Source: Bacilli bacterium (lineage in GTDB: Bacteria; Bacillota_I; Bacilli_A; RFN20; CAG-826). Taken from it: a stretch of 64,000 nt of DNA. The stretch is taken from the NCBI GenBank assembly GCA_034176765.1, contig JAXFTN010000131.1:942-64941 (forward strand). The letters run 5' to 3'. The translations under genes were made by a program, and so were the position numbers. Below are positions 6,094 through 59,454 of this stretch, one piece after another. Below the pieces are notes generated by a model. It was not told the origin of the DNA and ran no database searches. It saw only the letters and a program-made list of their open reading frames with translations. Each line of letters opens with the position of its first letter. Within the stretch, counting starts at the first letter, position 1.

Positions 6094-6211
6094 CAATTTC
6101 ACCTCAAGTATTTATAAATTATTTAACTTGAGGTTTTTTATTTTAAAAAATAAATTGTTATATTGCTTATAATATTTTGACTTGTTAAAATATTAAAAGG
6201 GAGTGATTAGA

Positions 6212-13057: not shown

Positions 13058-13058
13058 T

Positions 13059-13691: not shown

Positions 13692-13692
13692 T

Positions 13693-32116: not shown

Positions 32117-32761
32117 ATGAAAAATAATAGAAGAATTAGACAAATTACAGGAATAGCTTTGCTATCTGCATTAGCTATTGCTTTACAATTCTTATCAAAT
32201 TTTATTGCATCAATTGGTATTGCTAGTATTACGTTAGCATTAATACCAATTGTTGTTGCGGCTTGTGTGTATGGACCTTATGCTGGCTTATTAATAGGTG
32301 TTCTAGTTGGGGCATCTGTTTTGCCTGGAGCAGTATTTTTCTTAAGTTTTAGTCCAGTAGTTACAGTTTTTGTTTGTTTACTTAAGACGGGTTTAGCTGG
32401 ATTGTTAGCAGGATTTATTTTCAAATGGCTATGCAATAAAAATACATTATTAGCAGTTATTATAGCTTCTATTTCTGTTCCGCTTGTTAATACTGGTTTA
32501 TACTTAATAGCAGTTTATGTTTTCTATATTCCAGCTTTTGAAGCAGTACTCGAAGAAGGTACTAATGTATACACATATGTACTTGTTGCGACATTGTCAA
32601 TTAATTTCTTATTAGAATTCTTATTAAACTCATGCCTATCACCAGTTATTCATCGTTTAATTTTATTATTAAATAAGAAATATGATATTGGGATGATTAA
32701 CTATAATAAAAAAGATAATGAAGTAGAAGATAATAATAATGATAATAAATCTATAGACTAA
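32117..32761 (+). CDS. ECF-transporter S-component-like membrane protein (substrate unknown; adjacent to coaX)
   Basis: About 6 helices and ~200 aa. Gly/Ala-rich helix packing typical of S components. Followed by a terminator. Confidence 0.4.
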   Translation: MKNNRRIRQITGIALLSALAIALQFLSNFIASIGIASITLALIPIVVAACVYGPYAGLLIGVLVGASVLPGAVFFLSFSPVVTVFVCLLKTGLAGLLAGFIFKWLCNKNTLLAVIIASISVPLVNTGLYLIAVYVFYIPAFEAVLEEGTNVYTYVLVATLSINFLLEFLLNSCLSPVIHRLILLLNKKYDIGMINYNKKDNEVEDNNNDNKSID

Positions 32762-43517: not shown

Positions 43518-43527
43518 AATAATACCT

Positions 43528-45003
43528 CTAGAATAAGAATCCTTGAACTGCAGAAATAATGTAATTTGAAAAAATACCAATTAATACTGCAGAAACAGTT
43601 AAAATAATCAAGACAGTAGACATCAATTTATTTTCTTTTACTTTTGAAAATTCTTGATTTTTATCTCCTGGGAAGAATGCTTTTATTGTAATAGGTAATA
43701 AGTAAAGGGCTGTAAAAACAGCTGAAGTTAATAAAACAATACAAGCGATAATACCAACTGCTGTTGATCCACTATTTAAAGCACCCATAGCTAGATACCA
43801 TTTTGAAGTGAATGGACCAGTAGGTGGAATACCAATTAATCCTAGTGAACATATTGTATAGCACCACATTGTGATTGGCATTTGTTTTCCAACACCTGTT
43901 AATTCATCAACATTATGTTTTTGTAAATTGTGGATCATAATACCAGCTACTAAGAATAAGCAAACTTTAATACAAGCATGAGAAGCAATGTGTATAAAAG
44001 AACCTGCTAGTGATTGTTCGTTTAATAAACTGATACCTAATAAAATATAAGATAATTGAGAAACAGAAGAGTAAGCTAAACGTTTCTTAAAATTATTTTG
44101 TAATAAAGCAAGACCAGAGCCTAATAAAATTGTGATTAAAATTAATGTAATCCAAGTATATTGCAACCATGTTCCTTTTATAAAGTCTGTACCTACTATA
44201 AAAAATAAAATACGAACGATAAATAAGACACCAGCTTTAGTAATGATACCAGAAAGAACGGCTGATGCAGGAGCTGGAGCAACAGGGTGAGCTGTTGGTA
44301 GCCATTCTTGTAATGGGAACATACCTGCTTTTGTACCAAAACCAATAAATGCAAGTAGTAATGAAACTAAAATCAATGTTTTGTGTGCGTTAGCTTCAGT
44401 TAAATCTAGTGATCCACCTAAAACAAATTCGCAACCATTTGTTGTATAAGCATATAAAACAAAGACAGCAAATAATCCTAAAAAGGCACCACCTATTGAA
44501 TAAATTAAATATTTAATAGCAGCTCTAATTGATTCTTTAGTTTTATCATAAAGAACTAGTGGCATTGAAAGAAGTGTTAGCATTTCAAATCCAAGATAAA
44601 GGGTTATTAAGTTACCTGAATAACATAATAATAAAAGTGTTGCTTCAGACATTAAGTAGAAAGAGAAGAATTTATTTGAGTTCTCATCGTGTTCAAAATA
44701 TCTAAAAGCATATAAGCTAACTAATAAGAATATAACTGAAATGATGATAGCAAAGAAATTTGAAACCCCATCATTTTTAAATAAAATCAACAAATTATCA
44801 GTTAATTTAAAAAGTTCTACTCTTTGTCCACTAAAAATAGTTAAAAGAATGACGCTTATTACTATTAAACTTGATAGTGAAGAAATCAAAATGTTAATTA
44901 ATTTTTTATTTTGTGTTTTTAAAAAGTGAACTACTATTCCTAATATTAATGGAACAAGTATAGAAATAAACATAAAAATAAACATATCTTCCCTCCTATG
45001 CAA
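43528..45003 (-). CDS. Mrp antiporter subunit D-like, paralog 2
   Basis: WLPTAHPVAPAPASAVLSGI signature. Length is 491 aa. Confidence 0.75.
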   Translation of the reverse strand: MHRREDMFIFMFISILVPLILGIVVHFLKTQNKKLINILISSLSSLIVISVILLTIFSGQRVELFKLTDNLLILFKNDGVSNFFAIIISVIFLLVSLYAFRYFEHDENSNKFFSFYLMSEATLLLLCYSGNLITLYLGFEMLTLLSMPLVLYDKTKESIRAAIKYLIYSIGGAFLGLFAVFVLYAYTTNGCEFVLGGSLDLTEANAHKTLILVSLLLAFIGFGTKAGMFPLQEWLPTAHPVAPAPASAVLSGIITKAGVLFIVRILFFIVGTDFIKGTWLQYTWITLILITILLGSGLALLQNNFKKRLAYSSVSQLSYILLGISLLNEQSLAGSFIHIASHACIKVCLFLVAGIMIHNLQKHNVDELTGVGKQMPITMWCYTICSLGLIGIPPTGPFTSKWYLAMGALNSGSTAVGIIACIVLLTSAVFTALYLLPITIKAFFPGDKNQEFSKVKENKLMSTVLIILTVSAVLIGIFSNYIISAVQGFLF

Positions 45004-46489
45004 ACATATCTAAACCTTTTTGTATTACTACAATAATATAAGGTAGAGAGCCAATAACTATATTAATTAATGAAAAACCAATAACACTCAATTTAAAAGC
45101 AAATGAGCTTTTTTCTTTAATGGTTTCATTAGTAGCAACTTCAAGAGGAGAGTAAATAGTAATAATTGTTCTTAAGAAATAAATTGTATTTAATAATGTA
45201 GAGATAACTAATGATGCAAGAGCAAGTGATACTTGTAAAGTTGATATTGTTGCGTCTAGAGCACCCATAATTAATAAACATTTAGTAGCAAATCCAGCAA
45301 AGAATGGGAAACCGACCATAGATAGAGAACCTATCGTATATCCAATTCCTGCGATAATATCTTTCTTTCCAGACCCCTTTAAAGATCTAAATCTTGCATC
45401 CCCATTCGATACGCTAATTAATCTATTACTAGAAACAAATAATAAAGGTTTAGTACATGCATGACATAAAATTTGTATTATTGCACCAACAATACCTGCA
45501 GGTCCTAAGCCAATACCCATATAGATATAACCAATTTGAGCTGCTGATGAAAAAGAAATCATACGATTTATTTTTCCTTGTCTTATAGCTGAAAGAGAAC
45601 CAAATATCATACCTAGAGCACCAACGATTAAATAAACACCAGTAAGTTTTAAAGAGTTAATAGTATCCCAACCGAATGTACGATAAATCATTTTAATTAG
45701 TAAAATAATGTAACCTTTTGAAATAACACCAGATACGATTGATGCAGAAGTTGTTGTAGATTCACCATATGCATCTGGCATCCAAAAGTAAAATGGGAAC
45801 ATACCACTTTTAATGCCTAATCCAACTGAAATTAATAAACATGAACAAATAATTGCTGGAGTATTTTTGTTATTAGTTACTAAAGTTGTTAATGCTTCTT
45901 TAATGTAACTCATAGATAAATAACCAGTTAAGTCATATAAGAAAATAATACCAAGTAAGAATAGACCAGAGCCGATCAAATTAAATATCATATATCTTAT
46001 TGCAGCTACTGTAGTATTGCCTTTTTCTTTAATCATAATTAGGCCAATACTTGCGAGTGTAGATATTTCTAAGAAGACATAGCCTGTAAAGACGTCGTTA
46101 GTATAAATTAATGCAATTAAAGCAACTAGTACTAAGTTTAATAAAACATACATAAAGTGTTCTTTATTTTCACTTATATCTTCTTTAATATCTTTTTGTC
46201 CTCCGAGTAATGATAATAAAATAATAAGAGGAAAAAATATTGCAAATATTGATTCTAGAACACCAAATCTAATTTCATTACAAAATGGAGCAGGGAAATG
46301 ACCCATTGGATATTCTATGCTTCCTTCTTTTAGGGTTAGCATTAGAACACATATTCCAAATGCAACAGAAATACTATCAACAATAATTGTAATAATTCGT
46401 GATGCTTTTCCTTTTAATATTGCACATAAAACTACAGCAACAAAAGCTAAAATGATTGTAAACAAGGGGAAATTTTTAAAGAATTCCAT
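44996..46489 (-). CDS. Mrp antiporter subunit D-like, paralog 1
   Basis: WMPDAYGESTTTSASIVSGV is a degenerate version of the same signature. Length is 497 aa. Confidence 0.72.
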   Translation of the reverse strand: MEFFKNFPLFTIILAFVAVVLCAILKGKASRIITIIVDSISVAFGICVLMLTLKEGSIEYPMGHFPAPFCNEIRFGVLESIFAIFFPLIILLSLLGGQKDIKEDISENKEHFMYVLLNLVLVALIALIYTNDVFTGYVFLEISTLASIGLIMIKEKGNTTVAAIRYMIFNLIGSGLFLLGIIFLYDLTGYLSMSYIKEALTTLVTNNKNTPAIICSCLLISVGLGIKSGMFPFYFWMPDAYGESTTTSASIVSGVISKGYIILLIKMIYRTFGWDTINSLKLTGVYLIVGALGMIFGSLSAIRQGKINRMISFSSAAQIGYIYMGIGLGPAGIVGAIIQILCHACTKPLLFVSSNRLISVSNGDARFRSLKGSGKKDIIAGIGYTIGSLSMVGFPFFAGFATKCLLIMGALDATISTLQVSLALASLVISTLLNTIYFLRTIITIYSPLEVATNETIKEKSSFAFKLSVIGFSLINIVIGSLPYIIVVIQKGLDMFA

Positions 46490-46491
46490 AT

Positions 46492-46872
46492 CTAGTCCTC
46501 CTTGTGTTTGTGTATTGCATGATACACTTCATCTAAATTAAGAGTGTGATATTTTGAATATAACCTTACTGTTAGTGCTAAAGATATAGCTGTAACAGAA
46601 ACAGAAACAACAATACCTGTTAAGACTAGACCAGCAGGAATAGGATTTACATAAGATGAAGGATCGGTACTACCATTATTTAAGATTGGTGGGACACGAT
46701 CACCTTGAATATATCCCATAGATGCAAGAAATAAGTATGTTCCTGTATCCATAATATTTAACCCAATAATTTTCTTTAATAAGTTACGATGGAATAAGAG
46801 TAGAGCAAACCCAATGCCAAATAATAAGATGGCAACTACTTCTACTAAATGATCAAGTAAAGCTTGTAGCAT
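46492..46872 (-). CDS. Mrp antiporter subunit C-like (NuoK-like)
   Basis: LLFGIGFALLLFHRNLLKKIIGLNIMDTGTYLFL motif. ATGA overlap with the upstream gene. Confidence 0.7.
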   Translation of the reverse strand: MLQALLDHLVEVVAILLFGIGFALLLFHRNLLKKIIGLNIMDTGTYLFLASMGYIQGDRVPPILNNGSTDPSSYVNPIPAGLVLTGIVVSVSVTAISLALTVRLYSKYHTLNLDEVYHAIHKHKED

Positions 46873-46873
46873 A

Positions 46874-47767
46874 TTAGATTTCTCCTTTCTTAAATAATGA
46901 ATAGAATCCAAACATTGTGCATGTAACAACTAATCCGACACAAACATTTAAAATAAAGATTATGCCTCCACTTAAGATAGCACCAGGTTCGCCTAATGGA
47001 ATTACTGAATGCATACCATTAGCACCTGTAAAGAATGAATATGTTTTACATCCACAATATGTTAATAAAGATAGTGAAGTAATAACTTTGAAAGATTTTT
47101 GCTTGAAGAATCTTTCCGAATTATTAAAGCCAAATGCAATTGAATAAAGAATTAATCCTGCACCCATGATAGCTCCGCCGGAGAAACCTCCTCCAGGAGA
47201 AATGGATCCATTTAATACTACATATGCACCGAATAATAAAATAATAGGAACAAGGATAGAACAAGTAATTTGTAAAATTGGATCTTGTACAATTTTAAAT
47301 TTTTCTTTTAATGTTGCATTGTCTTTAAAACCTTGTAATAAAATCATTACACAAGTAACAGCAGTAAAAAGAACAAAAGATTCACCAAGAGTATCAAATG
47401 CACGATAATCTAAAATCATACCTGTTACAAAGTTGGTTGCGCCTGTATCACCAATACCATCCTTAATATATTTATCAATTATTTCATTTAGAGTAGGATT
47501 ATTTAATTCATCTCCAAAGACTGGTAAGAATGTAACACAATATAATAAGGAACAAATAAATAATAATGATGCAACAATTGCTATAAAATAATAAATTCCA
47601 GATTCAAATTTATGAGATTTCTTTTTAATTGCAGCAGTTGCTTGTTTGTTAGGTTTTTTAGCTTTTATAGTATCATCATAATTAACAACTAAATCTTCAT
47701 CGTTTTCAATATTTGAAAGCAAATCTTGACTTTCACCTAAAAAGTTTTTATTTTTCATGAGATTCAC
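46874..47767 (-). CDS. Mrp antiporter subunit B-domain protein with hydrophilic N-terminal extension
   Basis: GMILDYRAFDTLGESFVLFTAV is the MnhB signature. Confidence 0.65.
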   Translation of the reverse strand: MNLMKNKNFLGESQDLLSNIENDEDLVVNYDDTIKAKKPNKQATAAIKKKSHKFESGIYYFIAIVASLLFICSLLYCVTFLPVFGDELNNPTLNEIIDKYIKDGIGDTGATNFVTGMILDYRAFDTLGESFVLFTAVTCVMILLQGFKDNATLKEKFKIVQDPILQITCSILVPIILLFGAYVVLNGSISPGGGFSGGAIMGAGLILYSIAFGFNNSERFFKQKSFKVITSLSLLTYCGCKTYSFFTGANGMHSVIPLGEPGAILSGGIIFILNVCVGLVVTCTMFGFYSLFKKGEI

Positions 47768-48080
47768 CTTCTTTTATTTCTACTTGAGATGATTCTTCAA
47801 GTACACTATTTTCATTGTGTTTATCATCGACTTTATTTAAGTTAGAATCAATTTGTTTAATCTTCTTTAAAGTTAAGAAAAATAAAACACTTGTTACACC
47901 TGCACCAACAGCAGCTTCCGTAATTGCTAAATCAGGTGCTTGTAATAAAACCCAAATAACAGACATGACTACTGAATATGAACTAAAGATTATAATAGAT
48001 GTTAATAAATTCTTACTTAATCCAGCAGCAATAGCACAGACAACTAAAAAAACTAATAAAATAATTTCAAATATTTCCAT
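47748..48080 (-). CDS. Small MnhB-N-terminal-like (DUF4040-type) membrane protein
   Basis: Three helices. Occupies the MbhD/E position of Mbh-type clusters. Confidence 0.5.
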   Translation of the reverse strand: MEIFEIILLVFLVVCAIAAGLSKNLLTSIIIFSSYSVVMSVIWVLLQAPDLAITEAAVGAGVTSVLFFLTLKKIKQIDSNLNKVDDKHNENSVLEESSQVEIKEGESHEK

Positions 48081-48442
48081 TAGTTGTCACCTTCTTCCTT
48101 ATCTTCTACTTTTTCACTAGAATCAACTTGCGTTTGATTAACTTCTTTTTTTACTTGATCGTCAGTTAAGACTTCAAGTTTAGAAATAAAGTGACTTGCT
48201 ACAGGACTTGTTAGCCATAAAAAGATAACAATAAAGAATAATTTTATAGATGTTGCATTAAATCCATTAGCAATAGCAATTCCTAAGATAATACAAAATA
48301 AACCCATCGTATCTAATAAAGCTGCTGAGTGCATTTTGTTTAAAACGAATTTAAATTTATAAATTCCAATAACTCCTATAATAAATAGGAAAAGGCCTAA
48401 AAGAATAAAGAAAGCAGAAAAACCAAAAGTTACCCAAGTCAT
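48080..48442 (-). CDS. Mrp antiporter subunit G-like
   Basis: VLNKMHSAALLDTMG matches the MnhG RxHAA region. Length is 120 aa. Confidence 0.7.
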   Translation of the reverse strand: MTWVTFGFSAFFILLGLFLFIIGVIGIYKFKFVLNKMHSAALLDTMGLFCIILGIAIANGFNATSIKLFFIVIFLWLTSPVASHFISKLEVLTDDQVKKEVNQTQVDSSEKVEDKEEGDN

Positions 48443-48795
48443 TATTTTTCATCCTCCTTTTCTTCTTTTTTATTATCTTCTTCAATTGTAGGAATAATAT
48501 TAGTTGCTTTATGTTCTTCGATATAGCGATTAATAAAGACATTACTTAAAACGACAACTGATAAGAAAGATATTAAAACATAAATAATACATACATCACT
48601 TAAGTATGATTGCTTTAAAAATACTGAAAGAATAGCAATAATTGAAGTAACAAAAGTACCAGTCATATTGATAGTAACAATACGATCAGTTACACGAGGG
48701 CCTATAATAGTTTTAATAAGAATAAATAATAGACCAATACCTAAAAGGCATAATGTTCCAATAATTAGATATTCAAAAGCTAGTTCTGGTGTCAT
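48442..48795 (-). CDS. Mrp antiporter subunit F-like
   Basis: Three helices, 117 aa, positioned between the E and G subunits. Confidence 0.6.
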   Translation of the reverse strand: MTPELAFEYLIIGTLCLLGIGLLFILIKTIIGPRVTDRIVTINMTGTFVTSIIAILSVFLKQSYLSDVCIIYVLISFLSVVVLSNVFINRYIEEHKATNIIPTIEEDNKKEEKEDEK

Positions 48796-49289
48796 TATTT
48801 TTTGCCCTCCATTCTTCTTAATAGTTTAACTAATGTACTATTTTCAATTCCTTCAAAGTATTCTTTTCTTAAACAATGAACAATAAAAACACCACCATTT
48901 TTCTTTGTTTTATCACAAGAAATAGTGATAGTTCCTGGAGTAAGAGTAATAGAATTTGCTAGTAATGAAATTAGTAATTCGTTTTCTAAATCAATGTGTA
49001 TTTTGATAATCTGTGGTTCAGGAGTTTGTTTTCTTTTTAATATTAAAGAGACAACTTTTAAATTTGAAACTATAACATTAATAAATAAAACAATTCCATA
49101 AGCAATAAATAAATGAATGTGCTTTATAAAAAAAATATCTGTTTTAAAGCTCCATTTTGTAAATTTAATCATAAACCAATATATTAATGCACTTAATAAA
49201 AGGCCAATGATAACAATTTGTAGAAATTTTGTATCAAATGCAAAATGAGCATTCAATAATAACCATATTAAAAAAATGATTATAAACAT
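48795..49289 (-). CDS. Mrp antiporter subunit E-like
   Basis: LANSITLTPGTITI is the MnhE signature. RBS AAGGTGGAG precedes the ATG at 49289. First gene of the minus-strand operon. Confidence 0.7.
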   Translation of the reverse strand: MFIIIFLIWLLLNAHFAFDTKFLQIVIIGLLLSALIYWFMIKFTKWSFKTDIFFIKHIHLFIAYGIVLFINVIVSNLKVVSLILKRKQTPEPQIIKIHIDLENELLISLLANSITLTPGTITISCDKTKKNGGVFIVHCLRKEYFEGIENSTLVKLLRRMEGKK

Positions 49290-49469
49290 TTCTCCACCTT
49301 CTTTCACCTTTAAAACTATACCACTATAAGATTTTTAAATCAATTATTACATAGTAATAATATAGTATTTATCATAAATATTTTTTTATTAATGAAATAT
49401 GTTTTTCTTAACAATAAAGTACAAAAAAAATAAAATTTGTTTTTTTTTATCAAAACTAGTCGTTATTAG

Positions 49470-49503: not shown

Positions 49504-50811
49504 ATGAGTTTATTTAGTTCTAGCATAGGTAGACATTTAAACGGCCATAAAGAATTATCAAAACATGCCGAAATAATTGATCTTCGTGCGAAAGCTGGAC
49601 AAAAAGTTTATTTCCCTACTATTTGTTCAAATAATACTCCACTTAATGTTTTAGTTAAACCTGGAGATAAAGTTAAAGCTGGACAAAAAATAGCAGAAAG
49701 AACTGATTTTTATGTTCCAATTTATGCATCTGTATCTGGCACTGTTTTAGATGAAGAAGTCCTATTTAGTACAAATGTCAATAAACCTATCAAACACATC
49801 GTTATTGAAAGCGATGGTACTCACAAACAAAATAGGAAACTAAAAACTGTTACTTTAGAAAGTACTCAAGAAGAAATTTTCAAGGCTATTAAAGAAGCAG
49901 GTTTAGTTGGTCTAGGGGGTGCTGGGTTCCCTACTTATGTAAAATATAATAACCCACAAAATATCCACACATTACTTGTTAACGGAGTAGAATGTGAACC
50001 ATTCTTAACAACTGACTATGTTCAAATGTCAAGAGAAGTTGAATATTTAATGAGTGGTTGTGAATTATTAATGAAAGCAAGTGGAGCTGAAAAAGCTATC
50101 ATTGCTATTAAAGTTCATAAAGAAGATGTTAAAAATGCGGTTAATAGTAAATTAGCAGAACATCCTAATATTAAATTAGTTGAAGTTCCTGATAAATACC
50201 CAATGGGTTGGGAAAGAACTTTAATTAGACAAATATTTAAGAAGACTTATAACAAATTACCTTCTGAAGTTGGTATTGTTATAAATAACGGTCAAACAGT
50301 TATAGAACTTGCAAAAGTATTATTAGAAGGTCATCCTATGACTGAAAGAATGGTAACTGTTTCAGGTGACGCAATTAAAGAACCACATAATGTTTTAATT
50401 AATATTGGTACTCAAGCTAAAGAATTAATTGAAGCATGTGGTGGTATCACAGAAGAAGACTGTAATTTAATTCCTGGTGGTCCAATGTGTTCAAAGGCTG
50501 TTAATAATGATGTATTCCCATTAAATATGCAAATGGGTGCACTTACTATATTAAAAGTAAGAACATTTGTCGAAGAACCATGCTTAAGATGTGGTGCTTG
50601 TACAGGTCATTGTCCAGCAGGTCTTCAACCAGTTGAAATTAGAAGTGCTTTAAAAGCAAAAGATTACGATAGATTATTAAAACTTGATGTCTTATCTTGT
50701 GTCGAATGTGGTATGTGTTCATATACATGTCCTTCTCGTATTGAACTTACAGATGCTGTTAAGAACGCAAAACCAGTTGTCAAATTCAAGATGGCACAAG
50801 CAAAGAAATAA
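49504..50811 (+). CDS. rnfC: Rnf complex subunit C (NADH-binding, 2x[4Fe-4S])
   Basis: GLGGAGFPT NADH-binding loop. Ferredoxin motifs CLRCGACTGHCP and CVECGMCSYTCP are present. Confidence 0.9.
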   Translation: MSLFSSSIGRHLNGHKELSKHAEIIDLRAKAGQKVYFPTICSNNTPLNVLVKPGDKVKAGQKIAERTDFYVPIYASVSGTVLDEEVLFSTNVNKPIKHIVIESDGTHKQNRKLKTVTLESTQEEIFKAIKEAGLVGLGGAGFPTYVKYNNPQNIHTLLVNGVECEPFLTTDYVQMSREVEYLMSGCELLMKASGAEKAIIAIKVHKEDVKNAVNSKLAEHPNIKLVEVPDKYPMGWERTLIRQIFKKTYNKLPSEVGIVINNGQTVIELAKVLLEGHPMTERMVTVSGDAIKEPHNVLINIGTQAKELIEACGGITEEDCNLIPGGPMCSKAVNNDVFPLNMQMGALTILKVRTFVEEPCLRCGACTGHCPAGLQPVEIRSALKAKDYDRLLKLDVLSCVECGMCSYTCPSRIELTDAVKNAKPVVKFKMAQAKK

Positions 50812-50823
50812 GGAGGTAAGAAA

Positions 50824-52434
50824 ATGGCTTTTAAGACAAATTCAGCTCCTTATCAAAGAGCTAAAAAATCAACTCTACAAATTATGATAGAGTTAGCAAT
50901 TGCACTTGCAATTGTTTGGATTGCTGCGATTGTTACAACATTTATTAAATTAGGTTCTCCATATGGTGTTAAATCTATTTTGTTAATGGTTGTATCATTA
51001 GCTACTACAGCAGTTTGTGATGTTTTAACAACATTATTTAGAAATTTTAGAGTTCTAAAAGGTAAAGAACTTGGAAAAAAGATACTTTATGATTTAGTTC
51101 ATAATTATTCTTGGATTACTGCAATGATTCTTACTTTAATTTGCCCTGTCTGGACAAGTTATTATGCAATCATTTGTGGTTCAATCTTTGCTACTTTAGT
51201 TGTTAAAAATTTATTTGGTGGTTTTGGATCAAACATTTTCAACCCAGCTGCTTTTGGTAGAATTTTTATTCAACTATGTTTCTCATTAGCAGTTCCTGCA
51301 GGAATTACTAATGGTGTTGTTTCTGGAGCTACATTAACAGGTGTTGTTAATTCAAGTCAACAATGGCTTGGTGCTTTAGAAATCGATGGCTTTGGAATTA
51401 AAGAAATCTTATTAGGTACTTATTTTGGTACAATGGGTGAAACATTTACTATTCTTCTTTTAGTTTTAGGTGTTGTCCTTGCTATTAGAGGAGATATTAA
51501 CTGGAGAGCTCCTGTATTCTATGTAGGTACTGTCGCTGTTACTTCAATAATAATTGCATTAGTATTAGGATTTGAAAATCCTTTATTATATGTTGTATAT
51601 CATCTAGGTTTAGGTGGATTAATGTTTGGTGCTGTATTTATGATTACAGACCCTGTCACAACTCCTACTGCACCTGTTGGTAATTGCTTTGTTGGAGTAT
51701 TTGCAGCATTAATGACTGTTTTATTAAGAATTGCTACAAATGGTCCTGAAGGTGTTGTTTACTCAATTGCACTTGTTAACTTAATTACTCCAGCTATTGA
51801 TAGAATCTGTGTTGGTAAAACATCTGCTCATAAAGGAGTTAAATATGGTGTAACATTTGGTACTCTAGCAGCTTCTATCTTATTGTGTGTAGGTTGTTCA
51901 TGGGCTTTAAACGGTGGTCGTGAAGTCAATGAAATTAATGGAATTTCACGTAAAGAATATGATGAATTAAAATCATATGTAAATTTTGAATTCATGGATG
52001 AAAAAGGTTATGAATTCATGAAATATGAAAAAACAATTGGCTCATATAGTAGTCTAACTTCTGTTGGCAATTGTTCATCTGCATATAGTATCATTGATGA
52101 AAATAATAATGTAGTTGCTGCTGTTTACTGTGTTCAAGTTAGTGGTATTTCAATTGATAATGGATATAATGTTTCTGAGAAAACTGGTGTTGCTTACGTT
52201 GCTATTTCAACAACAACTGATCAAATTATTGATATGTCACTAGTTAAAGTTCCATATGTTGGAGCATATTTAGATAAAGTTAATGGTGGAGTTAATGATT
52301 TTGATTATGCAAATAATAATATTTTAGATAAAGAACCAAATCAGATTATTACAGGTGCTACTTATTCAGCAATAGGTATTAAAAATCTTGCACAAGCTGC
52401 CGTTGATGTTTATCAAGGCGAATATAAAGCATAG
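50824..52434 (+). CDS. rnfD: Rnf complex subunit D fused to a C-terminal FMN-binding (RnfG/NqrC-like) domain
   Basis: NqrB/RnfD core with FMITDPVTTPTAPVG. A ~170-aa extension contains the flavinylation-type motif IITGATYSAIG. Confidence 0.8.
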   Translation: MAFKTNSAPYQRAKKSTLQIMIELAIALAIVWIAAIVTTFIKLGSPYGVKSILLMVVSLATTAVCDVLTTLFRNFRVLKGKELGKKILYDLVHNYSWITAMILTLICPVWTSYYAIICGSIFATLVVKNLFGGFGSNIFNPAAFGRIFIQLCFSLAVPAGITNGVVSGATLTGVVNSSQQWLGALEIDGFGIKEILLGTYFGTMGETFTILLLVLGVVLAIRGDINWRAPVFYVGTVAVTSIIIALVLGFENPLLYVVYHLGLGGLMFGAVFMITDPVTTPTAPVGNCFVGVFAALMTVLLRIATNGPEGVVYSIALVNLITPAIDRICVGKTSAHKGVKYGVTFGTLAASILLCVGCSWALNGGREVNEINGISRKEYDELKSYVNFEFMDEKGYEFMKYEKTIGSYSSLTSVGNCSSAYSIIDENNNVVAAVYCVQVSGISIDNGYNVSEKTGVAYVAISTTTDQIIDMSLVKVPYVGAYLDKVNGGVNDFDYANNNILDKEPNQIITGATYSAIGIKNLAQAAVDVYQGEYKA

Positions 52435-52446
52435 GAGGTAAGTACG

Positions 52447-53007
52447 ATGAATAAATTAGTTAAATTGCCATTATTCCTAGGCGCAGTCGGATGTATTTGT
52501 GGTGGCGTTCTTGCTGCTGTAAATTTTGTTACAGAACCAGTTATTGCTGCTAATGAAGAAAAGAAAGCAAATGCTGCTTTCTATGAACATTTTTCTAATT
52601 TTAGTAAGAAAAATGTTGTAACAGTAAAAGATGAGCTTGCTTCTGCAGGTATTACTCAAAAATTTTATTGTTTTGATGAATCATTAACATTTATTGGTAC
52701 TGTATATGAATGTTCAGTCGTTGGATATGCTGGTAAAAGTACACCAATCAAATTTACAGTTTCATTTGCTAATGGAGCTCCTAATCACTATGTTGAATTA
52801 AGTAACGGCGAATCTGCTGAAGGCAAAAAATTTATGGATTGGCTTAAAGAAGATGTCAATGGAAATCGTTTATCAAATCTAGAAGAAGGTAAAACAGTTT
52901 CAGGTTCATCTATTTCATATAAAGCAGTTGATGGTGCAGTAAAGGCATGTTCAGCTGACTACCTTGCGGAACTTGAACATGTTCCAACTTTTATAGAAAA
53001 TGAATAG
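52447..53007 (+). CDS. rnfG: Rnf complex subunit G (FMN-binding)
   Basis: N-terminal membrane anchor. FMN_bind-like motif KTVSGSSISYKAVDGAV near the C-terminus. Confidence 0.75.
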   Translation: MNKLVKLPLFLGAVGCICGGVLAAVNFVTEPVIAANEEKKANAAFYEHFSNFSKKNVVTVKDELASAGITQKFYCFDESLTFIGTVYECSVVGYAGKSTPIKFTVSFANGAPNHYVELSNGESAEGKKFMDWLKEDVNGNRLSNLEEGKTVSGSSISYKAVDGAVKACSADYLAELEHVPTFIENE

Positions 53008-53021
53008 GAGGGTAAATAGTT

Positions 53022-53681
53022 ATGAAAAAATTACAAACATTTTTAAATGGTTTATTATTTGAAAATCCTACTCTTGTTATTTTCTTAGGTATGTGCCCTG
53101 CTTTAGGAACAACAAATACTGTTGAAAATGCTACATATATGTCATTATGTGTATTATTTGTTTTACTTCTTTCAAATATTATTATTTCATTGATTAGAAA
53201 AATCGTTCCAAATGAAGTAAGAATTCCTGTTTACATTATTATCATTGCAACTCTTGTTACAATTGTTGATATGTTATTCCATGCATATTTACCAGATAAA
53301 GTTTATTCTTCATTAGGTTCATTTATATCATTGATTGTTGTTAACTGTATTATTTTAGGAAGAGCAGAATCATTTGCTTCTAAAAATAAAATCGGTGATT
53401 CAATTATCGATGCATTAGGTTACAGTGCTGGTTTTGCTGGAGCTATTATTATTGTAGCTTTCTTCAGAGAATTATTAGGCACAGGATGTTTATCATGGGG
53501 TAGCAGTTCTGTTGATCTATTCTCTGATTATAAAATTTCTTTATTTGCATCTAATGCTGGGGCATTTATTGCATTGGGTATCGTAGTAGGTATTTATTCA
53601 GCAATTATGAGTGCTATAAAAAATCATAAGGCAAAAAAAGCTGCATTAGCTAAAGAAGCTAATGTTGAAGCTACAAAGTAA
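53022..53681 (+). CDS. rnfE: Rnf complex subunit E
   Basis: ENPTLVIFLGMCPALGTTNTVENA matches the RnfE/NqrD signature. Confidence 0.9.
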   Translation: MKKLQTFLNGLLFENPTLVIFLGMCPALGTTNTVENATYMSLCVLFVLLLSNIIISLIRKIVPNEVRIPVYIIIIATLVTIVDMLFHAYLPDKVYSSLGSFISLIVVNCIILGRAESFASKNKIGDSIIDALGYSAGFAGAIIIVAFFRELLGTGCLSWGSSSVDLFSDYKISLFASNAGAFIALGIVVGIYSAIMSAIKNHKAKKAALAKEANVEATK

Positions 53682-53696
53682 GGAGGAATAAAAGAA

Positions 53697-54275
53697 ATGG
53701 ATTTATTTGCTATCGCATTTGCTGCTTTACTTGGCAGTAATATTATTCTTTCAAGATTTTTAGGTATTTGTCCTTTCTTAGGAGTTTCTAAAAAAACTTC
53801 TAGTGCTGTTGGCATGGGTTTAGCATTAATTGCTGTTGTTACTTTATCAGCTTTATTATGTTTTGCACTTGATAAACTACTTGTTTTATTAGGAATGGCA
53901 TCTTATCTAGAATTAGTTGTTTTCATTCTTGTAATTGCTTCATTCGTTCAATTATTAGAATTTTTCTTAAAGAGATTTGTTCCAAGTTTATATAAATCAC
54001 TAGGTGTTTATCTTCCTTTAATTACAACAAACTGTGTTGTTTTACAAGTATGTTTAGATCTTGTTTCAAGAGAATATAACTTATTACAAACTTTAGTTTA
54101 CGCAGTTAGTGTATCAGCAGGTTATATGCTAATCATTGTTCTTTTCTCTTTAATTAGAACTCGTTTAGATAATCAACCTAATATGCCTAAAGCATTTAAA
54201 GGAAATGCAATTGCCTTAATTACAGCTGGATTAATGGCTATGGCTTTCATTGCATTTAGTGGTTTTAGCTTCTAA
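53697..54275 (+). CDS. rnfA: Rnf complex subunit A
   Basis: ILSRFLGICPFLGVSKK matches the RnfA/NqrE signature. Confidence 0.9.
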   Translation: MDLFAIAFAALLGSNIILSRFLGICPFLGVSKKTSSAVGMGLALIAVVTLSALLCFALDKLLVLLGMASYLELVVFILVIASFVQLLEFFLKRFVPSLYKSLGVYLPLITTNCVVLQVCLDLVSREYNLLQTLVYAVSVSAGYMLIIVLFSLIRTRLDNQPNMPKAFKGNAIALITAGLMAMAFIAFSGFSF

Positions 54276-54493
54276 TGATATTCACTCAAGAAACTGGTAA
54301 TATATGGGTTCAAATAGGTATTTTACTTGTATGTATTGCATTATTTGTAGGTACTTATTTATTGAATAGACATACAAAAAAGCCAGATGGATGTGAAAAT
54401 GTTAGTGAGCATTGTACAGGTTGTACAATCTCTTCCTGTTCTCATCATCCAAATAATTCTAAAGAAGAAAAAGGAGAAGAAAAAAATGATTAA
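54275..54493 (+). CDS. Small single-pass membrane protein with Cys-rich tail (CxnCxxCxxxxCxHH)
   Basis: Translationally coupled between rnfA (ATG overlaps its stop) and rnfB (8-nt overlap). One helix, then CENVSEHCTGCTISSCSHH. Confidence 0.4.
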   Translation: MIFTQETGNIWVQIGILLVCIALFVGTYLLNRHTKKPDGCENVSEHCTGCTISSCSHHPNNSKEEKGEEKND

Positions 54494-54800
54494 AATTTTA
54501 TTAGCTATGGCTGTTTCTTTAGGAATAGCAGCTATATTAGGTTTTGGACTTGCACTTGCTGATAAATTCCTTAAAGTTGAAGAAGATCCACGTATTGAAA
54601 AAGTTACTTCAATGCTACCTGGTGCAAACTGTGGTGGTTGTGGCTTCCCTGGATGTTCTGGTTATGCATGTGCATTAGTTGAAAAGAAAGTTGATTCTTT
54701 AGCAGCTTGTAAAGTATCAAAACCAGAAGCAAAAGAACAAATTAAAGCTTATTTAAAAGAGACACCAGGACCTGATGGAACTACTCTTGATTTAAAATAA
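54486..54800 (+). CDS. rnfB: Truncated RnfB: N-terminal membrane anchor and Cys-cluster module only, no polyferredoxin domains
   Basis: RBS AAAGGAGAAG is present. LPGANCGGCGFPGCSGYACAL matches the RnfB N-terminal Fe-S module. The ORF stops after 104 aa with no CxxCxxCxxxCP ferredoxin motifs. An immediate terminator follows. Confidence 0.65.
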   Translation: MIKILLAMAVSLGIAAILGFGLALADKFLKVEEDPRIEKVTSMLPGANCGGCGFPGCSGYACALVEKKVDSLAACKVSKPEAKEQIKAYLKETPGPDGTTLDLK

Positions 54801-54803
54801 ATT

Positions 54804-54828
54804 AAATGGCCGAAAGGCCATTTTTTTA
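54804..54828 (+). terminator. Rho-independent terminator after rnfB
   Basis: Hairpin AAATGGCCGAAAGGCCATTT followed by a T-run. Confidence 0.75.
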
Positions 54829-54938: not shown

Positions 54939-55901
54939 ATGAAAAAATCAAAATTATTATTAATTCCTGCTGTTCTTGCTCTTGGATCATTAGCATCATG
55001 TGGCGGAACAAAAGAAGTTTCTCTTGGATTAGGCTATGTAGCTTCATTTGCTGATTCACATGGAAAAATGCAATTAGAAGTTAGTGTAGCTTCAGTTGGT
55101 TTTGATAAAGATGGTAAAGTTCTTGATGCAAGATTTGACACAATTCAAGTCACACATGCTGCTGCTAAAAACGCTGATGGATCAATTACTTTCAGCACAC
55201 CATCTGCAACAAACGATAATGGCGTTAAATCTAAACTAGAATTAGGTAAAGATTACAACATGAAACCTGTTAGTGCTTTAGGTCTTGAAGTCGATACTCA
55301 AATTGAAACTTTTGCTGATTTCTGTGTTGGTAAAACAGTAGAAGAAATTAAAGCAGCTGAATCTGTTGAAGGTGTTTCAATTGTTGTTTCAAGTTATGTT
55401 AGCGCATTAGAAAAAGCATATGCTTCAAAAAGAGAAGCTGTTTCTTACAAAGGCGAATTAAAAGCTGGCGTTGGTATGGCTGGTACACTTAATGCAAAGA
55501 AAAATGAAACTTCAATTACAGTTAATGCTTCATTAGTAGCTGATTCTAAAGTTGTTGCATCTTATACAGACTGTGTTGTTCACCAATTCAGCGGTGCTGT
55601 TGAAGGTGACAAAGTGGTTGTTTCATCTAAAGCAGACCAAAAATATGTTGTAAATGGAAAAATCACATCTAAATATGATTTACACGAAGCTTATGGTATG
55701 GGCCAAACTGGTGAAAAAGTTATCTTAGAATGGGACGTTCAAGCAGAAAACTTTGATGCTGCAGTTATTGGTAAAACAGCAGATGAAATTAAAGCATTAA
55801 AAGATATCGAAGGTTGTACAATGGTAATTACAGATATGATTGGTGCTACTGTTGAAGCTGTTACATACTCAGGTATGGAACACGTTGGTCCACAAGCTTA
55901 A
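54939..55901 (+). CDS. Surface lipoprotein with two internal repeats; candidate flavinylated (FMN-binding-like) ApbE substrate
   Basis: RBS GGAGG is present. Lipobox LASCGG. The two halves are related (VEEIKAAESVEGVSIVVSS versus ADEIKALKDIEGCTMVITDMIGATVEAV). The second half carries a D-x-x-x-G-A-T motif. Confidence 0.45.
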   Translation: MKKSKLLLIPAVLALGSLASCGGTKEVSLGLGYVASFADSHGKMQLEVSVASVGFDKDGKVLDARFDTIQVTHAAAKNADGSITFSTPSATNDNGVKSKLELGKDYNMKPVSALGLEVDTQIETFADFCVGKTVEEIKAAESVEGVSIVVSSYVSALEKAYASKREAVSYKGELKAGVGMAGTLNAKKNETSITVNASLVADSKVVASYTDCVVHQFSGAVEGDKVVVSSKADQKYVVNGKITSKYDLHEAYGMGQTGEKVILEWDVQAENFDAAVIGKTADEIKALKDIEGCTMVITDMIGATVEAVTYSGMEHVGPQA

Positions 55902-55919
55902 TAATTTAAATTAGCTTTT

Positions 55920-55949
55920 AAAGTTGCTACATATGTAGCAACTTTTTTT
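55920..55949 (+). terminator. Rho-independent terminator
   Basis: Hairpin AAGTTGCTACATATGTAGCAACTT followed by a T6 run. Confidence 0.7.
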
Positions 55950-55995
55950 GTTTATTTTAAATAATGAATAGGGTAATATATAGATGGGTGAAATT

Positions 55996-57174
55996 ATGAA
56001 AAAGGCGTCAGTTTATTTATTACTAATTTGTTTATTATCATCATGCAGTTTGAAATATAATTATGAAGTTAATCCATATGATGTTATGGGTGTTATTGAT
56101 GATAATGGTGAATATATACCAGCTTTGAATTCATTTGTAAAATTGCAGATGTATAATGAAAATGAATTAAAAGAAGTAAGATCTTCTTTTTCGAGTACAA
56201 TTCAAAAAGTACATATTATTTCAGATAGTTATCATTCTTATTTTGGAAATAATAATGTAAAAACAATTAATGAAAACTATGGTAAAGAAGCTATAAATGT
56301 TGACCCTTTACTTATTGATTTAGTTAATAAAGGTATTGAATTAACAAAATTAACAAAAGGCATTTTTAATATTACTATGGGACAGACTATTTCTTTATGG
56401 AGTGATGCTTTTAATAATATCGATAATTCGTTAACAGCTGATGATCCTAATCATGAAGAAATAGAAAAAAGTTTAACTTCTATTATAAATTATGAAGAGA
56501 TTGATAATTATATTAAAATAGACCAAGAAAATTCAACTATTAAAATAGAAACTAAAGAAGATGCCTTAATGCCTGTTTTATTAAATTTTGGAGGCATTTC
56601 AAAAGGATTTGCTTTAGATCAAGTAAATGATTTGTTTTTAAATAATCAACCAGGAATAATTTCGGCTGGTTCTTCTTCAATATCATTAAAAGGTACGTTT
56701 CCTTTAAGTAATCGGAAATATTATTTAATTAATATTCGAGAACCTTCTTTTTATAAGTCTTCTCAACAAGAAGTGTTTTTACAAATAGCTCTAGAAAAAT
56801 ACAATAACATTTCAAATTCGGGTGATTATGAAAAGTTTTTCTTTACCAAAGATACAAATACTTTAAGATCTCATATTATAAATGCTTCGACTGGATTTAG
56901 TGATAATTATCATCGTTCTGCGATTGTGTTTAGTGAAACATATTCATATGTATTAGACGTTTTATCAACAACACTTATGAACCTTGAAACTATAGACGAA
57001 ATTGAAGAAATGGTAAAAAGATTTGAAGATTTTTATAAGACTTCAATTGCATATTGTATTATTGATGATTTTGAAAATGGATTTAAATTATCTGTTAATG
57101 AAAAGTTTAATGAATGTATTGTTGAAAATAAAATATCCTCGATAATCAAGGATATTCAAGTAATTAAGAATTAA
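55996..57174 (+). CDS. apbE: FAD:protein FMN transferase (ApbE family), lipoprotein, copy 1
   Basis: Lipobox LLSSCS. ApbE motifs are present: FGGISKGFALDQV, ISAGSSS, SHIINASTG and LDVLSTT. Confidence 0.7.
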   Translation: MKKASVYLLLICLLSSCSLKYNYEVNPYDVMGVIDDNGEYIPALNSFVKLQMYNENELKEVRSSFSSTIQKVHIISDSYHSYFGNNNVKTINENYGKEAINVDPLLIDLVNKGIELTKLTKGIFNITMGQTISLWSDAFNNIDNSLTADDPNHEEIEKSLTSIINYEEIDNYIKIDQENSTIKIETKEDALMPVLLNFGGISKGFALDQVNDLFLNNQPGIISAGSSSISLKGTFPLSNRKYYLINIREPSFYKSSQQEVFLQIALEKYNNISNSGDYEKFFFTKDTNTLRSHIINASTGFSDNYHRSAIVFSETYSYVLDVLSTTLMNLETIDEIEEMVKRFEDFYKTSIAYCIIDDFENGFKLSVNEKFNECIVENKISSIIKDIQVIKN

Positions 57175-57703
57175 ATAAGTGTTCAATGTGATGGTCAACT
57201 TTTAATAAAACAAGAGAAGTTAATAAAGCAGTAAGTAGACCTGTTATAATTCCTGAAATCATTAAAATAGGATAATACATAACTAGACCAAAAGTATTAT
57301 ATATAATTGATACAGCAATCATTTGACCAACACCATGGAAAACAGCACTTACACATGAAAGTCCATAAATTGAAAATTTCTTTAGGTAATATAATATAAC
57401 AACGATTAATGTTGATAAAAACCACCCACTAAGACTTAAAATGAAAGCTACAGAAAATAGACCTGTTCTTAAAAGACCAACAATTAAAACTCTTAAGAAG
57501 CCAATAGAAATATATTCTTTTGGTGAATAATAATATAATATAACTAATCCAATTGTATTTGCTAATCCTAGTTTTACGCCAGGAATAGCTATTGGAAGAG
57601 GTATCATTGATTCAACTAGATTTAAGATAATTCCTAATGCTAGGAATAAACTTAATCTAGTTATTTTTTTGATTGTTTTACTAGATTTAGAAGTGTTTTC
57701 CAT
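57164..57703 (-). CDS. Gx-transporter-family membrane protein (heptaprenyl-diphosphate-synthase-component-I-like)
   Basis: IPLPIAIPGVKLGLANTIGLV matches the family's PGxKLGLAN signature. About 5-6 helices. Its start overlaps the upstream NusG-II gene's stop. Confidence 0.55.
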   Translation of the reverse strand: MENTSKSSKTIKKITRLSLFLALGIILNLVESMIPLPIAIPGVKLGLANTIGLVILYYYSPKEYISIGFLRVLIVGLLRTGLFSVAFILSLSGWFLSTLIVVILYYLKKFSIYGLSCVSAVFHGVGQMIAVSIIYNTFGLVMYYPILMISGIITGLLTALLTSLVLLKVDHHIEHLFNS

Positions 57704-58148
57704 AATTTATTACACCTCCATATCCAAGTGTTTCATTACCTTCGCTATCATCTGTTGAATTGATTACTACACGTACATCGTTTGGAATACATACAATTGG
57801 TAAATTAGCGATATTAACCCATCCTTGTTTTTCACATGTTAAGTTAGGACAAGTAACATCGTGAACACGTATTCCTTTATCTTTATTAATATCAATATAA
57901 AAATCTCCAAGTAAATCAGGATATTTTTCTTTAGTTAAAACAATTGTATAAGTTTCATCAAGGTTATCAATATCAGTTCGATATTCTTTTAATTCTTCAC
58001 TTTTATAATAAATACAAACATATCTATTGCCAGAAAAGGCGCTATTATAAATAAAAATACCCACCATTAAAGAAATTGATGCTAGTGCACTAACAGCAAT
58101 TATGATAATATCAATAATTTTGAACTTTAATGAAAAATTTCTATTCAT
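57687..58148 (-). CDS. NusG-domain-II-containing small membrane-anchored protein
   Basis: N-terminal helix plus a ~110-aa beta-rich domain. Conserved partner of Gx-transporter/ApbE genes. ATG overlaps the upstream apbE stop. Confidence 0.45.
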   Translation of the reverse strand: MNRNFSLKFKIIDIIIIAVSALASISLMVGIFIYNSAFSGNRYVCIYYKSEELKEYRTDIDNLDETYTIVLTKEKYPDLLGDFYIDINKDKGIRVHDVTCPNLTCEKQGWVNIANLPIVCIPNDVRVVINSTDDSEGNETLGYGGVINYGKHF

Positions 58149-59454
58149 AATACACCTTACAATTTGAAGCTTTAATTTCTACATCTTTTTTTAAAGAACT
58201 ATCAATATAAATGTTTAGCTTATTATCTTTGTCTGTATCCATAATAATTAGGGAAAGATCTTTATCAGGATATTTAGCTAATAAATTATTTCTGTATGTG
58301 AAACATTGTTCTAGAGGCAAATTAACAAACATTGTTGAAAGAGCATCAAGTTGAGCATTAGAAAATGTCTTAGAAATAATAGTTACACTTGAATGTTCTT
58401 GACTACAATCACCAGTATAAGGATTAATAATGTGATGACGATATAATTTATTATTATCATCAGTATTAATATAATATGAATTATGATTATAATTACCAGA
58501 TGTTGAAATACCGTAATCATAATTTACACTTAAAGAAAAAGCTATATCTCTAATAATAGAGTTTCCTGTGCGAGGATCAGCAAAATTAAATAATTGATAT
58601 CCTTTTTCAAAAAAAGTAGGCGCAGTTAAAGAAGCTAATGAACTAGAACCAGCATTAATAACTCCATCAGTATAATTTAATGATAAGAATTTTTCTTTAA
58701 TGTAATCAACTGCTAACCCTTTTGCAATACCACCTGTAGTTATAACGGGACGATATTTAGAAGTGACTTTATTTCTTTCTAGTATGGAACCATTATATTC
58801 TTTATTATCAATAGCATTAAATGTAATTTCTTTTTTTTCATCATTAAAAGTAAACAATTCTTTAACTTCATCCATAGTTGGTGTAGCATTTGCGTATTTT
58901 AACATTTCAAGATTTTGTTCTTGACTATAGTAAGGGTCATAAAGATGAACATCATTACCTTCATCTAAGACATTGTAAAAAATGTCATCCCAAAAAGAAT
59001 TTAATTTACCAACAAAGAAATTAAAATAACCATTAGTTTCCAGTGTCATATCATATCCAACTTTTAGTAAAGAATATACTTTATCATCACATTTAATTGG
59101 AACATTACTACCATATGAATCGTTAATTACTTTAATCGAGGTAATAATGTTGCCATCTTCATCTTTATAGTTATAGTGTCTATCAAATAATTTATGTAAA
59201 GAATTGATTTGATCTAAAAAGATACTTTTAACTTTTTCATCAAAATTATCTTCATAAGTTTTCTTTTCGTTTTTAAAGTATTTAAAAGTCATTACCGTAT
59301 TAAATGGGACTACAGGTATATTAGTAGATGTTAAAACTGAAGCTGTACTATTAGATACAACTAACCATTCTCCTTTATTAATGACTTTATCTGCGCATGA
59401 AATTAGCGAAGAGGAGCAAAGTAAAATTGATAAATATTTGAATTTGTTTTTCAT
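58141..59454 (-). CDS. apbE: FAD:protein FMN transferase (ApbE family), lipoprotein, copy 2
   Basis: Lipobox LISCAD. ApbE motifs are present: TGGIAKGLAVDYI, INAGSSS, HHIINPYTGD and LDALSTMF. Confidence 0.72.
   Translation of the reverse strand: MKNKFKYLSILLCSSSLISCADKVINKGEWLVVSNSTASVLTSTNIPVVPFNTVMTFKYFKNEKKTYEDNFDEKVKSIFLDQINSLHKLFDRHYNYKDEDGNIITSIKVINDSYGSNVPIKCDDKVYSLLKVGYDMTLETNGYFNFFVGKLNSFWDDIFYNVLDEGNDVHLYDPYYSQEQNLEMLKYANATPTMDEVKELFTFNDEKKEITFNAIDNKEYNGSILERNKVTSKYRPVITTGGIAKGLAVDYIKEKFLSLNYTDGVINAGSSSLASLTAPTFFEKGYQLFNFADPRTGNSIIRDIAFSLSVNYDYGISTSGNYNHNSYYINTDDNNKLYRHHIINPYTGDCSQEHSSVTIISKTFSNAQLDALSTMFVNLPLEQCFTYRNNLLAKYPDKDLSLIIMDTDKDNKLNIYIDSSLKKDVEIKASNCKVYYE

Follow-up and report, generated by a model that had tools for sequence, protein, structure and literature searches.

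The stretch of DNA analysed here (the window) comprises 64,000 nucleotides of a Bacilli bacterium, positions 942 to 64,941 of contig JAXFTN010000131.1 (assembly GCA_034176765.1), with a GC content of approximately 28% and the standard bacterial code. Another 'Bacilli bacterium' metagenome-assembled genome (MAG), GCA_051872335.1, encodes proteins 74–85% identical in amino acid sequence to those of the window. Five genes occupy positions 54939 to 59454, next to an operon encoding the Rnf complex, a redox pump of the membrane. On the plus strand, a gene encoding a 320-residue lipoprotein (54939–55901; lipobox LASC, with the cysteine at position 21) is followed by apbE1 (55984–57174; lipobox LSSC), whose product matches PF02424 with 123.3 bits (E = 1.6e-35; cut-off 25.6 bits). 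The minus strand carries apbE2 (58141–59454; lipobox LISC; PF02424, E = 3.9e-25, 89.3 bits), an eetA homolog with a NusG-II domain (57687–58148; PF07009, E = 4.3e-16, 59.4 bits, cut-off 29.6 bits), and an eetB homolog, the Gx gene (57164–57703; PF07456, E = 9.5e-37, 126.7 bits, cut-off 30 bits). All five genes were located where an initial annotation, made from the sequence alone, had placed them; the Gx and NusG-II assignments held well above the profile cut-offs, and the lipoboxes of the three secreted proteins, read off the translations, were confirmed. We consider it likely that this region is an extracytosolic flavinylation module joined to the rnf operon, and this confidence applies to the explanation as a whole: export of the flavin, its attachment, the client proteins, and a role of the lipoprotein similar to that of PplA in Listeria.

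The apbE2, NusG-II, and Gx genes form a single minus-strand operon, as previously proposed, led by apbE2, with coding overlaps of 8 nucleotides (apbE2/NusG-II) and 17 nucleotides (NusG-II/Gx). This operon converges on the plus-strand genes, Gx and apbE1 overlapping at their 3' ends by 11 nucleotides. The two plus-strand genes, however, do not look like the single lipoprotein-apbE unit that had been described, since a strong terminator-like hairpin lies in the gap between them (55920–55945, plus strand; an 11-bp stem followed by a T-run, TTTTTGTTT). A second terminator-like hairpin, with an 8-bp stem, a GAAA loop, and a T-run, was found 3' of rnfB (54804–54823, plus strand). The lipoprotein gene thus has a hairpin on both sides and looks monocistronic; its neighbours are rnfB and apbE1, so that the apbE and transporter genes do not lie on either side of it as initially described. 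The true start codon of apbE1 is probably the ATG at 55996.

The product of the Gx gene is a polytopic protein with several hydrophobic segments, and its PF07456 match covers positions 2–145 of the 147 positions of the profile. A match to PF07456 is the definition of an eetB homolog used by Rivera-Lugo et al. (mBio 2023, PMC9973259), who reported that Listeria EetB binds flavin adenine dinucleotide (FAD), resembles the S subunits of energy-coupling factor (ECF) transporters, and is needed both for the flavinylation of PplA and for extracellular electron transfer (EET), FmnA being the matching ECF-T subunit. The same study counted 3,328 genomes in which eetB is colocalised with eetA, 2,169 in which it is colocalised with apbE, and 572 Clostridia in which it lies with Rnf. 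By analogy with Listeria, it is well founded to regard the Gx protein as an EetB homolog and a putative ECF-S-like subunit for FAD export. The proposal that this protein exports a flavin is consistent with its membership in the EetB family, but the FmnA-like role suggested for it is not, EetB being ECF-S-like and not an ECF-T subunit. Likewise, the statement that the molecular roles of the two proteins are not defined no longer applies to EetB, characterised in Listeria in 2023, but still applies to EetA/NusG_II.

The NusG_II protein, a single-pass protein with an N-terminal transmembrane segment (residues 4–37), appears from its domain to correspond to EetA, the putative partner of EetB. A clean deletion of eetA in Listeria was without an EET phenotype. 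The Listeria gene lmo2639, eetA by its locus number, carries DUF1312 (= NusG_II).

A point against FAD export by this locus is that no ECF-T or ECF-A gene was present in the 64-kb window. Two other ECF-S genes were observed there. One is an unusual open reading frame (ORF) (3840–4817, minus strand) in which a 2-thiouracil desulfurase (PF04463) is fused to an ECF riboflavin S-component (RibU, PF07155), an indication that the organism, besides exporting FAD as proposed here, also takes up flavin; the other (32117–32761, plus strand) encodes another ECF-S component (ECF_trnsprt, ThiT-like). The presence of two further S-components together with the lack of ECF-T and ECF-A genes in the window suggests that a shared ECF module is encoded elsewhere in the genome.

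The lipoprotein had been described as internally repeated, and its two halves indeed align at 113, versus 35 ± 5.8 in shuffled sequences. It consists of two homologous domains, with repeats of approximately 147 residues and long β-strands, and its AlphaFold2 model is confident and likewise shows two domains. Searches against Pfam and NCBIfam returned only sub-threshold noise (DUF7629, E = 0.029, and an acetyl-CoA acyltransferase fragment), and a Foldseek comparison of the model with the PDB gave no meaningful match (TM-scores of approximately 0.1). The initial annotation had considered the repeats as candidates for FMN_bind domains, which was borne out by one kind of profile comparison and not by another: Pfam FMN_bind gave no match, as detailed below, whereas a profile of the lipoprotein family matched PDB 2KZX (E = 1.4e-8), a fragment that is itself a Pfam FMN_bind domain, and the conserved Thr of the family aligned onto the Thr of DAISGAT in 2KZX. 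Judging from these alignments, the lipoprotein domains are related to FMN_bind by homology and fold.

The family to which the lipoprotein belongs is large. All of the 136 homologs retrieved by word-indexed search were Firmicutes lipoproteins of approximately 320–380 residues, and a Pfam domain was detected in one alone, a fusion to FMN_bind. A full search with a hidden Markov model yielded 2,326 representative clusters, among them some with proteins of approximately 650 residues with four domains and of approximately 990 residues with six. In the window protein, the predicted attachment sites for flavin mononucleotide (FMN) are S147 (codon 55377–55379, ESVEGVS) and T294 (codon 55818–55820, KDIEGCT). 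In an alignment of 73 sequences, this position (position 0) was Thr or Ser at both sites in every sequence, Asp or Glu was common at −6, and Gly or Ser at −2. This pattern has the same register as D-x-x-[ST]-G-A-[ST], the canonical motif for flavinylation (PMC12052999). Across the family, the consensus reads [DE]-L-x-[AS]-[GS]-[VC]-[TS]-[IMV].

The genomic neighbourhood of the family was analysed in 80 loci fetched out of 458 confirmed ones, plus Alkalicella, with neighbouring genes clustered by sequence and named with Pfam; these 80 loci were found from a 13-sequence Clostridial query subset, and the sample is therefore skewed to Clostridia-type members. Of the 73 loci whose flanking DNA was long enough to be informative, 67 (92%) contained an apbE gene on the same strand no more than 1 kb downstream of the lipoprotein gene, and in two further loci apbE was found within 3.5 kb. 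An rnfD gene was nearby in 4 of 83 loci only, two of which are those of the window's close relatives L002 and L003, indicating that the link between the lipoprotein and apbE is very strong and independent of Rnf. In approximately 25 of 81 loci, the gene order was an ndh2-like gene (Pyr_redox_2, 657 residues), polyprenyl synthase, UbiA prenyltransferase, eetA, eetB, lipoprotein, and apbE. In these clusters (ndh2-dmkB-dmkA-eetA-eetB-X-apbE), the lipoprotein family occupies the slot of PplA.

Several results weigh against the view that the lipoprotein is flavinylated. The Pfam FMN_bind profile (PF04205) gave no match to the window protein at E ≤ 0.1, nor to its homologs P0036, P0038, and P0013, with P0019 matching at E = 1.6. 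When the family was compared by HHalign with the RnfG alignment of the lineage, the signal peptide alone matched, and direct homology to RnfG is therefore not claimed. The window protein is devoid of the canonical motif, with Glu at −3 of its sites and, at site 2, an Asp at −5 instead of −6. More generally, 287 variant sites versus 9 GAT sites were counted among 150 representatives, the canonical [S/T]GA[S/T] thus being missing in nearly all members. Moreover, no experimental flavinylation was found for any member of the family in the literature consulted. Against the explanation as a whole, a search of the 64-kb window for ndh2, dmkA, and dmkB found none of them. Alternatively, the lipoprotein might be a degenerate FMN_bind-like protein without a covalent flavin, holding flavin or some other ligand non-covalently or serving as a scaffold, and its adjacency to apbE would reflect a shared envelope redox process rather than the link of an enzyme to its substrate.

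This last interpretation, also favoured by the observation that single motif substitutions lower flavinylation (PMC12052999), appears unlikely to us, as it has to contend with the Ser/Thr invariant at the attachment position of both repeats, with the conserved residues around it, with the frequency of a downstream apbE, and with the occupation of PplA's slot in EET clusters. In addition, GAT and GVT are found in place of one another: site 1 of P0172 reads LLAGATM and its site 2 LLAGVTM, and other members also have GAT at the same position. Variant motifs are also present in bona fide clients of relatives, namely AGVT in the RnfG of locus L086 and SGCT in an FMN_bind domain fused to RnfD in the Erysipelotrichaceae locus L088. 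In the fumarate reductase of K. pneumoniae, changing A to V or G to A in the motif leaves in each case approximately 50% flavinylation (PMC12052999). Taken together, the exchange of GAT and GVT, the AGVT and SGCT motifs of RnfG and of the RnfD fusion, and the residual flavinylation of these mutants suggest that the variant motif is functional. From these sequence features we infer that it is flavinylated, and the lipoprotein is probably a client of the neighbouring ApbEs.

ApbE1 and ApbE2 are approximately 30% identical to each other. The prediction that the catalytic motifs are intact in both proteins was confirmed by alignment with solved ApbE structures (1vrm, 7esa, and 6nxi), in which both keep GGI[AS]KG, SG[DN]Y, (S/H)HII, and D[AV]LST. 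ApbE1 matched TM1553 (1vrm), 7esa, and the ApbE of Vibrio cholerae, and the motifs GGIAKG, SGNY, HHIIN, and DALST of ApbE2 were aligned to 1vrm. The His of (S/H)HII aligned with His257 of V. cholerae ApbE, the residue mutated in 6nxj. It was also observed that, in both proteins, Asn replaces the Asp of HH(I/L)(I/L)DP (SHIINAS and HHIINPY, respectively). Both ApbEs are predicted to transfer FMN to Ser/Thr of their clients. Alternatively, one of them might mainly be a periplasmic-type FAD pyrophosphatase (Ftp class) that recovers FMN for a cell auxotrophic for flavin, instead of transferring flavin to proteins. Some Gram-positive Ftp/ApbE proteins, in Listeria and Enterococcus, hydrolyse FAD in vitro (PMC4767422), and the RibU-type importer encoded in the window would fit such a cell. 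We nevertheless regard this possibility as very unlikely: both Ftp classes transfer FMN when given a protein substrate (PMC4767422), ApbE1 seems to have retained, in HSYFGNNN, the Tyr found in the FAD-binding class, judging from the alignments to 4xdt and 6nxi, and predicted clients prevail in the gene neighbourhood.

The presence of two ApbEs had been explained in the initial annotation by different client proteins. That ApbE2 serves Rnf and ApbE1 the lipoprotein is plausible from the gene arrangement, apbE1 being located where the lipoprotein-linked apbE stands in other Firmicutes (the adjacency found in 67 of 73 loci) and the apbE2 type following rnf in close relatives. ApbE2 belongs to a narrow clade of orthologs of 425–445 residues in 'Bacilli bacterium' MAGs, and in three of these (45%, 37%, and 31% identity; loci L084, L085, and L086) the order rnfCDGEA-(x)-rnfB, apbE, eetA, eetB was found on one strand. 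These same three loci, in which a lipoprotein homolog is also near rnf, count against a division of clients: within ±9 kb they contain a single ApbE, of the apbE2 type, and no apbE1, which implies that one enzyme can serve both the lipoprotein and Rnf. The two ApbEs may alternatively be interchangeable generalists, the second copy providing dosage or regulatory flexibility only, and we give this explanation a probability only slightly short of even. It agrees with the context of the nearest ApbE1 homologs (30–37% identity), which were likewise found in apbE-eetA-eetB operons or beside rnf, and with the single apbE per lipoprotein of most Clostridial loci. It accounts less readily for the age of the two paralogs, as judged from their divergence, and for their joint retention in the window lineage (L002 and L003), for the position of apbE1 exactly where the lipoprotein-linked apbE is found, and for the difference between the motifs of the lipoprotein (EGVS and EGCT) and those of Rnf (SGAT, TGAT, and SGSS), which could demand another specificity. 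An attempt to treat lipoprotein-adjacent ApbEs as ApbE1 orthologs on the basis of bit scores, which preferred ApbE1 to ApbE2 by 71 to 0, was rejected; this preference is uninformative because ApbE2 is more divergent and because the best ApbE1 homologs are also found with eetAB and rnf.

The rnf operon (49504–54800, plus strand), identified by Pfam and NCBIfam matches, comprises rnfC, rnfD, rnfG, rnfE, rnfA, an ORF encoding a Cys-rich protein of 72 residues, and rnfB, and this gene order is identical in the relatives L002, L084, L085, and L086. It is a probable client and/or partner of the flavinylation module. The rnfD gene (50824–52434, plus strand) encodes a long protein of 536 residues with the motifs SGAT (T170) and TGAT (T513), in which an ordinary RnfD is followed by an extra transmembrane helix (residues approximately 342–362) and by a C-terminal domain of approximately 170 residues, presumably extracytosolic, that ends in the conserved I[IV][ST]GATY containing T513. 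This fusion is kept in the same four relatives. A search of the PDB by phmmer with the C-terminal domain gave zero matches, and a homolog search returned a single fragment. The domain matched Pfam FMN_bind weakly in the window and clearly in L088, where it carries the SGCT motif mentioned above, and its FMN_bind nature is deduced from these weak and clear matches and from the conserved SGAT. The same L088 locus, an rnf/apbE/eetAB locus, also contains two unannotated lipoprotein genes (4496–5194 and 6095–6904, minus strand) whose products carry motifs resembling flavinylation sites (two copies of VDAAAGATNI in one product, FTGASVST in the second), and several unrecognised ApbE clients may therefore cluster there.

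The rnfG gene (52447–53007, plus strand) encodes the motif SGSS (S155) and not SGAT. In relatives the RnfG motif is SGSS or SGST, and in L086 it is the AGVT already described (L086 5700–6290), a variation from which we conclude that flavinylation motifs are generally relaxed in this lineage. RnfB (approximately 54486–54800, plus strand) is short, with approximately 104 residues consisting of a transmembrane helix and a PF04060 iron-sulfur domain and without the 2x[4Fe-4S] ferredoxin-like domain; a short RnfB is also present in L002, L084, L085, and L086. The 72-residue protein encoded upstream (54275–54493, plus strand) contains one transmembrane helix and four Cys residues (C-x6-C-x2-C-x4-C). 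It is conserved, with its four Cys invariant across four lineages, and may together with the short RnfB represent a split or minimal RnfB. A Mrp/Mnh-type multi-subunit cation:proton antiporter operon (40019–49307, minus strand), identified by synteny with L002 (Pfam), is divergent from rnf in the window, and such an operon is also divergent from rnf in L084. Its location beside rnf suggests coupled ion bioenergetics.

Proximity of the lipoprotein to rnf was found in four lineages. In the lineage of the window, which includes L002 and L003, rnfB and the opposite-strand apbE2-eetA-eetB operon enclose the lipoprotein gene and apbE1. In the other relatives, the lipoprotein homolog is 5.5 kb away (L084), convergent just past eetB (L085), or directly 3' of apbE (L086).

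Building on the gene identities, the relationship to FMN_bind, the conserved Ser/Thr, and the synteny established above, we propose the following scheme, in which FAD export and the transfer of FMN to client proteins are modelled on the Listeria work. The EetB homolog, with the EetA homolog as its partner, would bind the substrate within an ECF-type exporter and deliver FAD to the outer side of the membrane; genes for the ECF-T and ATPase subunits would have to lie elsewhere in the genome. Both lipid-anchored ApbEs would use the exported FAD and link FMN by a phosphoester bond to Ser/Thr of the clients, for which the predicted sites are T170 and T513 of RnfD, S155 of RnfG, and the two positions of the lipoprotein. 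With its two divergent domains of the FMN-bind2 type, the lipoprotein would carry two FMNs and, as its place in EET clusters suggests, would work like Listeria PplA as a membrane-tethered two-flavin electron carrier at the cell surface. The pairing of each ApbE with its clients, and the electron donor and acceptor of the lipoprotein, are what we infer from this scheme.

An extension of this scheme is an Rnf-driven, quinone-independent outlet for EET, in which electrons would flow from reduced nicotinamide adenine dinucleotide or ferredoxin to Rnf, to the flavins covalently bound to RnfD and RnfG and to the additional T513 domain of RnfD, to the two flavins of the lipoprotein, and to an external acceptor. 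As a corollary, [GS][VC][TS] would be a genuine second ApbE motif, possibly read by ApbE1. Such an Rnf-fed outlet is possible given that the window contains no ndh2 or dmk genes, that four lineages have the lipoprotein gene near rnf, and that the RnfD fusion is conserved, but it is speculative and we hold it to be rather doubtful.

All components of the module are of kinds described between 2018 and 2024, i.e., ApbE, EetA/EetB, FMN-bind2, and the colocalisation of Rnf, eetB, and apbE. In the literature consulted, we found no report of the variant-motif statistics, of the 92% adjacency to apbE, of the occupation of PplA's slot, of the juxtaposition with rnf, or of the retained pair of ApbEs. 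If the variant motif is flavinylated, surveys of ApbE clients based on the motif or on Pfam miss a family of 2,326 clusters that is common in Clostridia and Bacilli and to which the protein taking the position of PplA in many electron-export clusters of Clostridia belongs. The layout linked to Rnf, with an RnfD-FMN fusion by a PplA-like lipoprotein, would further suggest an outward electron route in quinone-poor, Mollicutes-like bacteria of gut and digester.

In another part of the window (11630–17073, plus strand), genes were observed for JetA (PF18982, E = 2.5e-94), a 210-residue protein, and an SMC-like ATPase of 1126 residues (AAA_29 / SbcC Walker B). This set corresponds to a Wadjet or MksBEF-like condensin; downstream, no JetD-like gene was seen, and glgC was found instead.

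The Listeria EET locus, reportedly described by Light et al. in 2018, is said to contain dmkA, dmkB, ndh2, eetA, eetB, pplA, fmnB/apbE, and fmnA. The window resembles the locus of Listeria monocytogenes in its eetA-eetB pair, its lipoprotein ApbE, and the two-domain surface lipoprotein of approximately 310–320 residues encoded beside apbE. It differs in having an rnf operon in place of ndh2, dmkA, dmkB, and fmnA, and in having two ApbEs. Unlike PplA, the window lipoprotein has no Pfam FMN_bind match, and [GS][VC][TS] replaces SGAT. The likeness to PplA lies in the architecture and in the adjacency to apbE.

The lipoprotein domains correspond to FMN-bind2 (Huang et al. 2024, mSystems, PMC11334425), exemplified by the two-domain NTW96865.1 of an Erysipelotrichaceae bacterium and by 6xFMN_Bind2 of Hujiaoplasma nucleasis. 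They share with it domains of approximately 150–160 residues, long β-strands, even domain numbers (2, 4, and 6), the lack of an InterPro/Pfam entry, and hosts among Firmicutes and Mollicutes-like bacteria, the match having been made by the published description. That study contains neither the variant motif, apbE synteny statistics, PplA-slot occupancy, or Rnf linkage, nor experimental flavinylation of FMN-bind2. Earlier, Meheust et al. (2021) had concluded from genomes with an orphan apbE that unidentified substrates exist, with PF07456 and NusG_II unmentioned.

As in the Rnf-associated eetB/apbE clusters of Clostridia, rnf is colocalised in the window with eetB (PF07456) and apbE, and in those clusters the ApbE acting on RnfG and RnfD has been proposed to be supplied with FAD (PMC9973259). 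In contrast to these clusters, the window adds a PplA-like lipoprotein, a second ApbE, the transmembrane helix and FMN_bind-like domain of RnfD, and an RnfB of approximately 104 residues. Finally, Cad, the precursor of the Enterococcus faecalis pheromone cAD1, is likewise a lipoprotein (approximately 309 residues) with two homologous flavin-site domains and an adjacent apbE, but its sites are the canonical SGAT (PMC7074142). The cad-apbE pairs were stated to occur only in genomes lacking rnf (PMC7074142), whereas the Cad/PplA-like lipoprotein-apbE pair of the window is directly beside rnf, and this also holds for L084–L086. This arrangement contradicts the published generalisation that Cad/PplA-apbE and rnf are mutually exclusive (PMC7074142).

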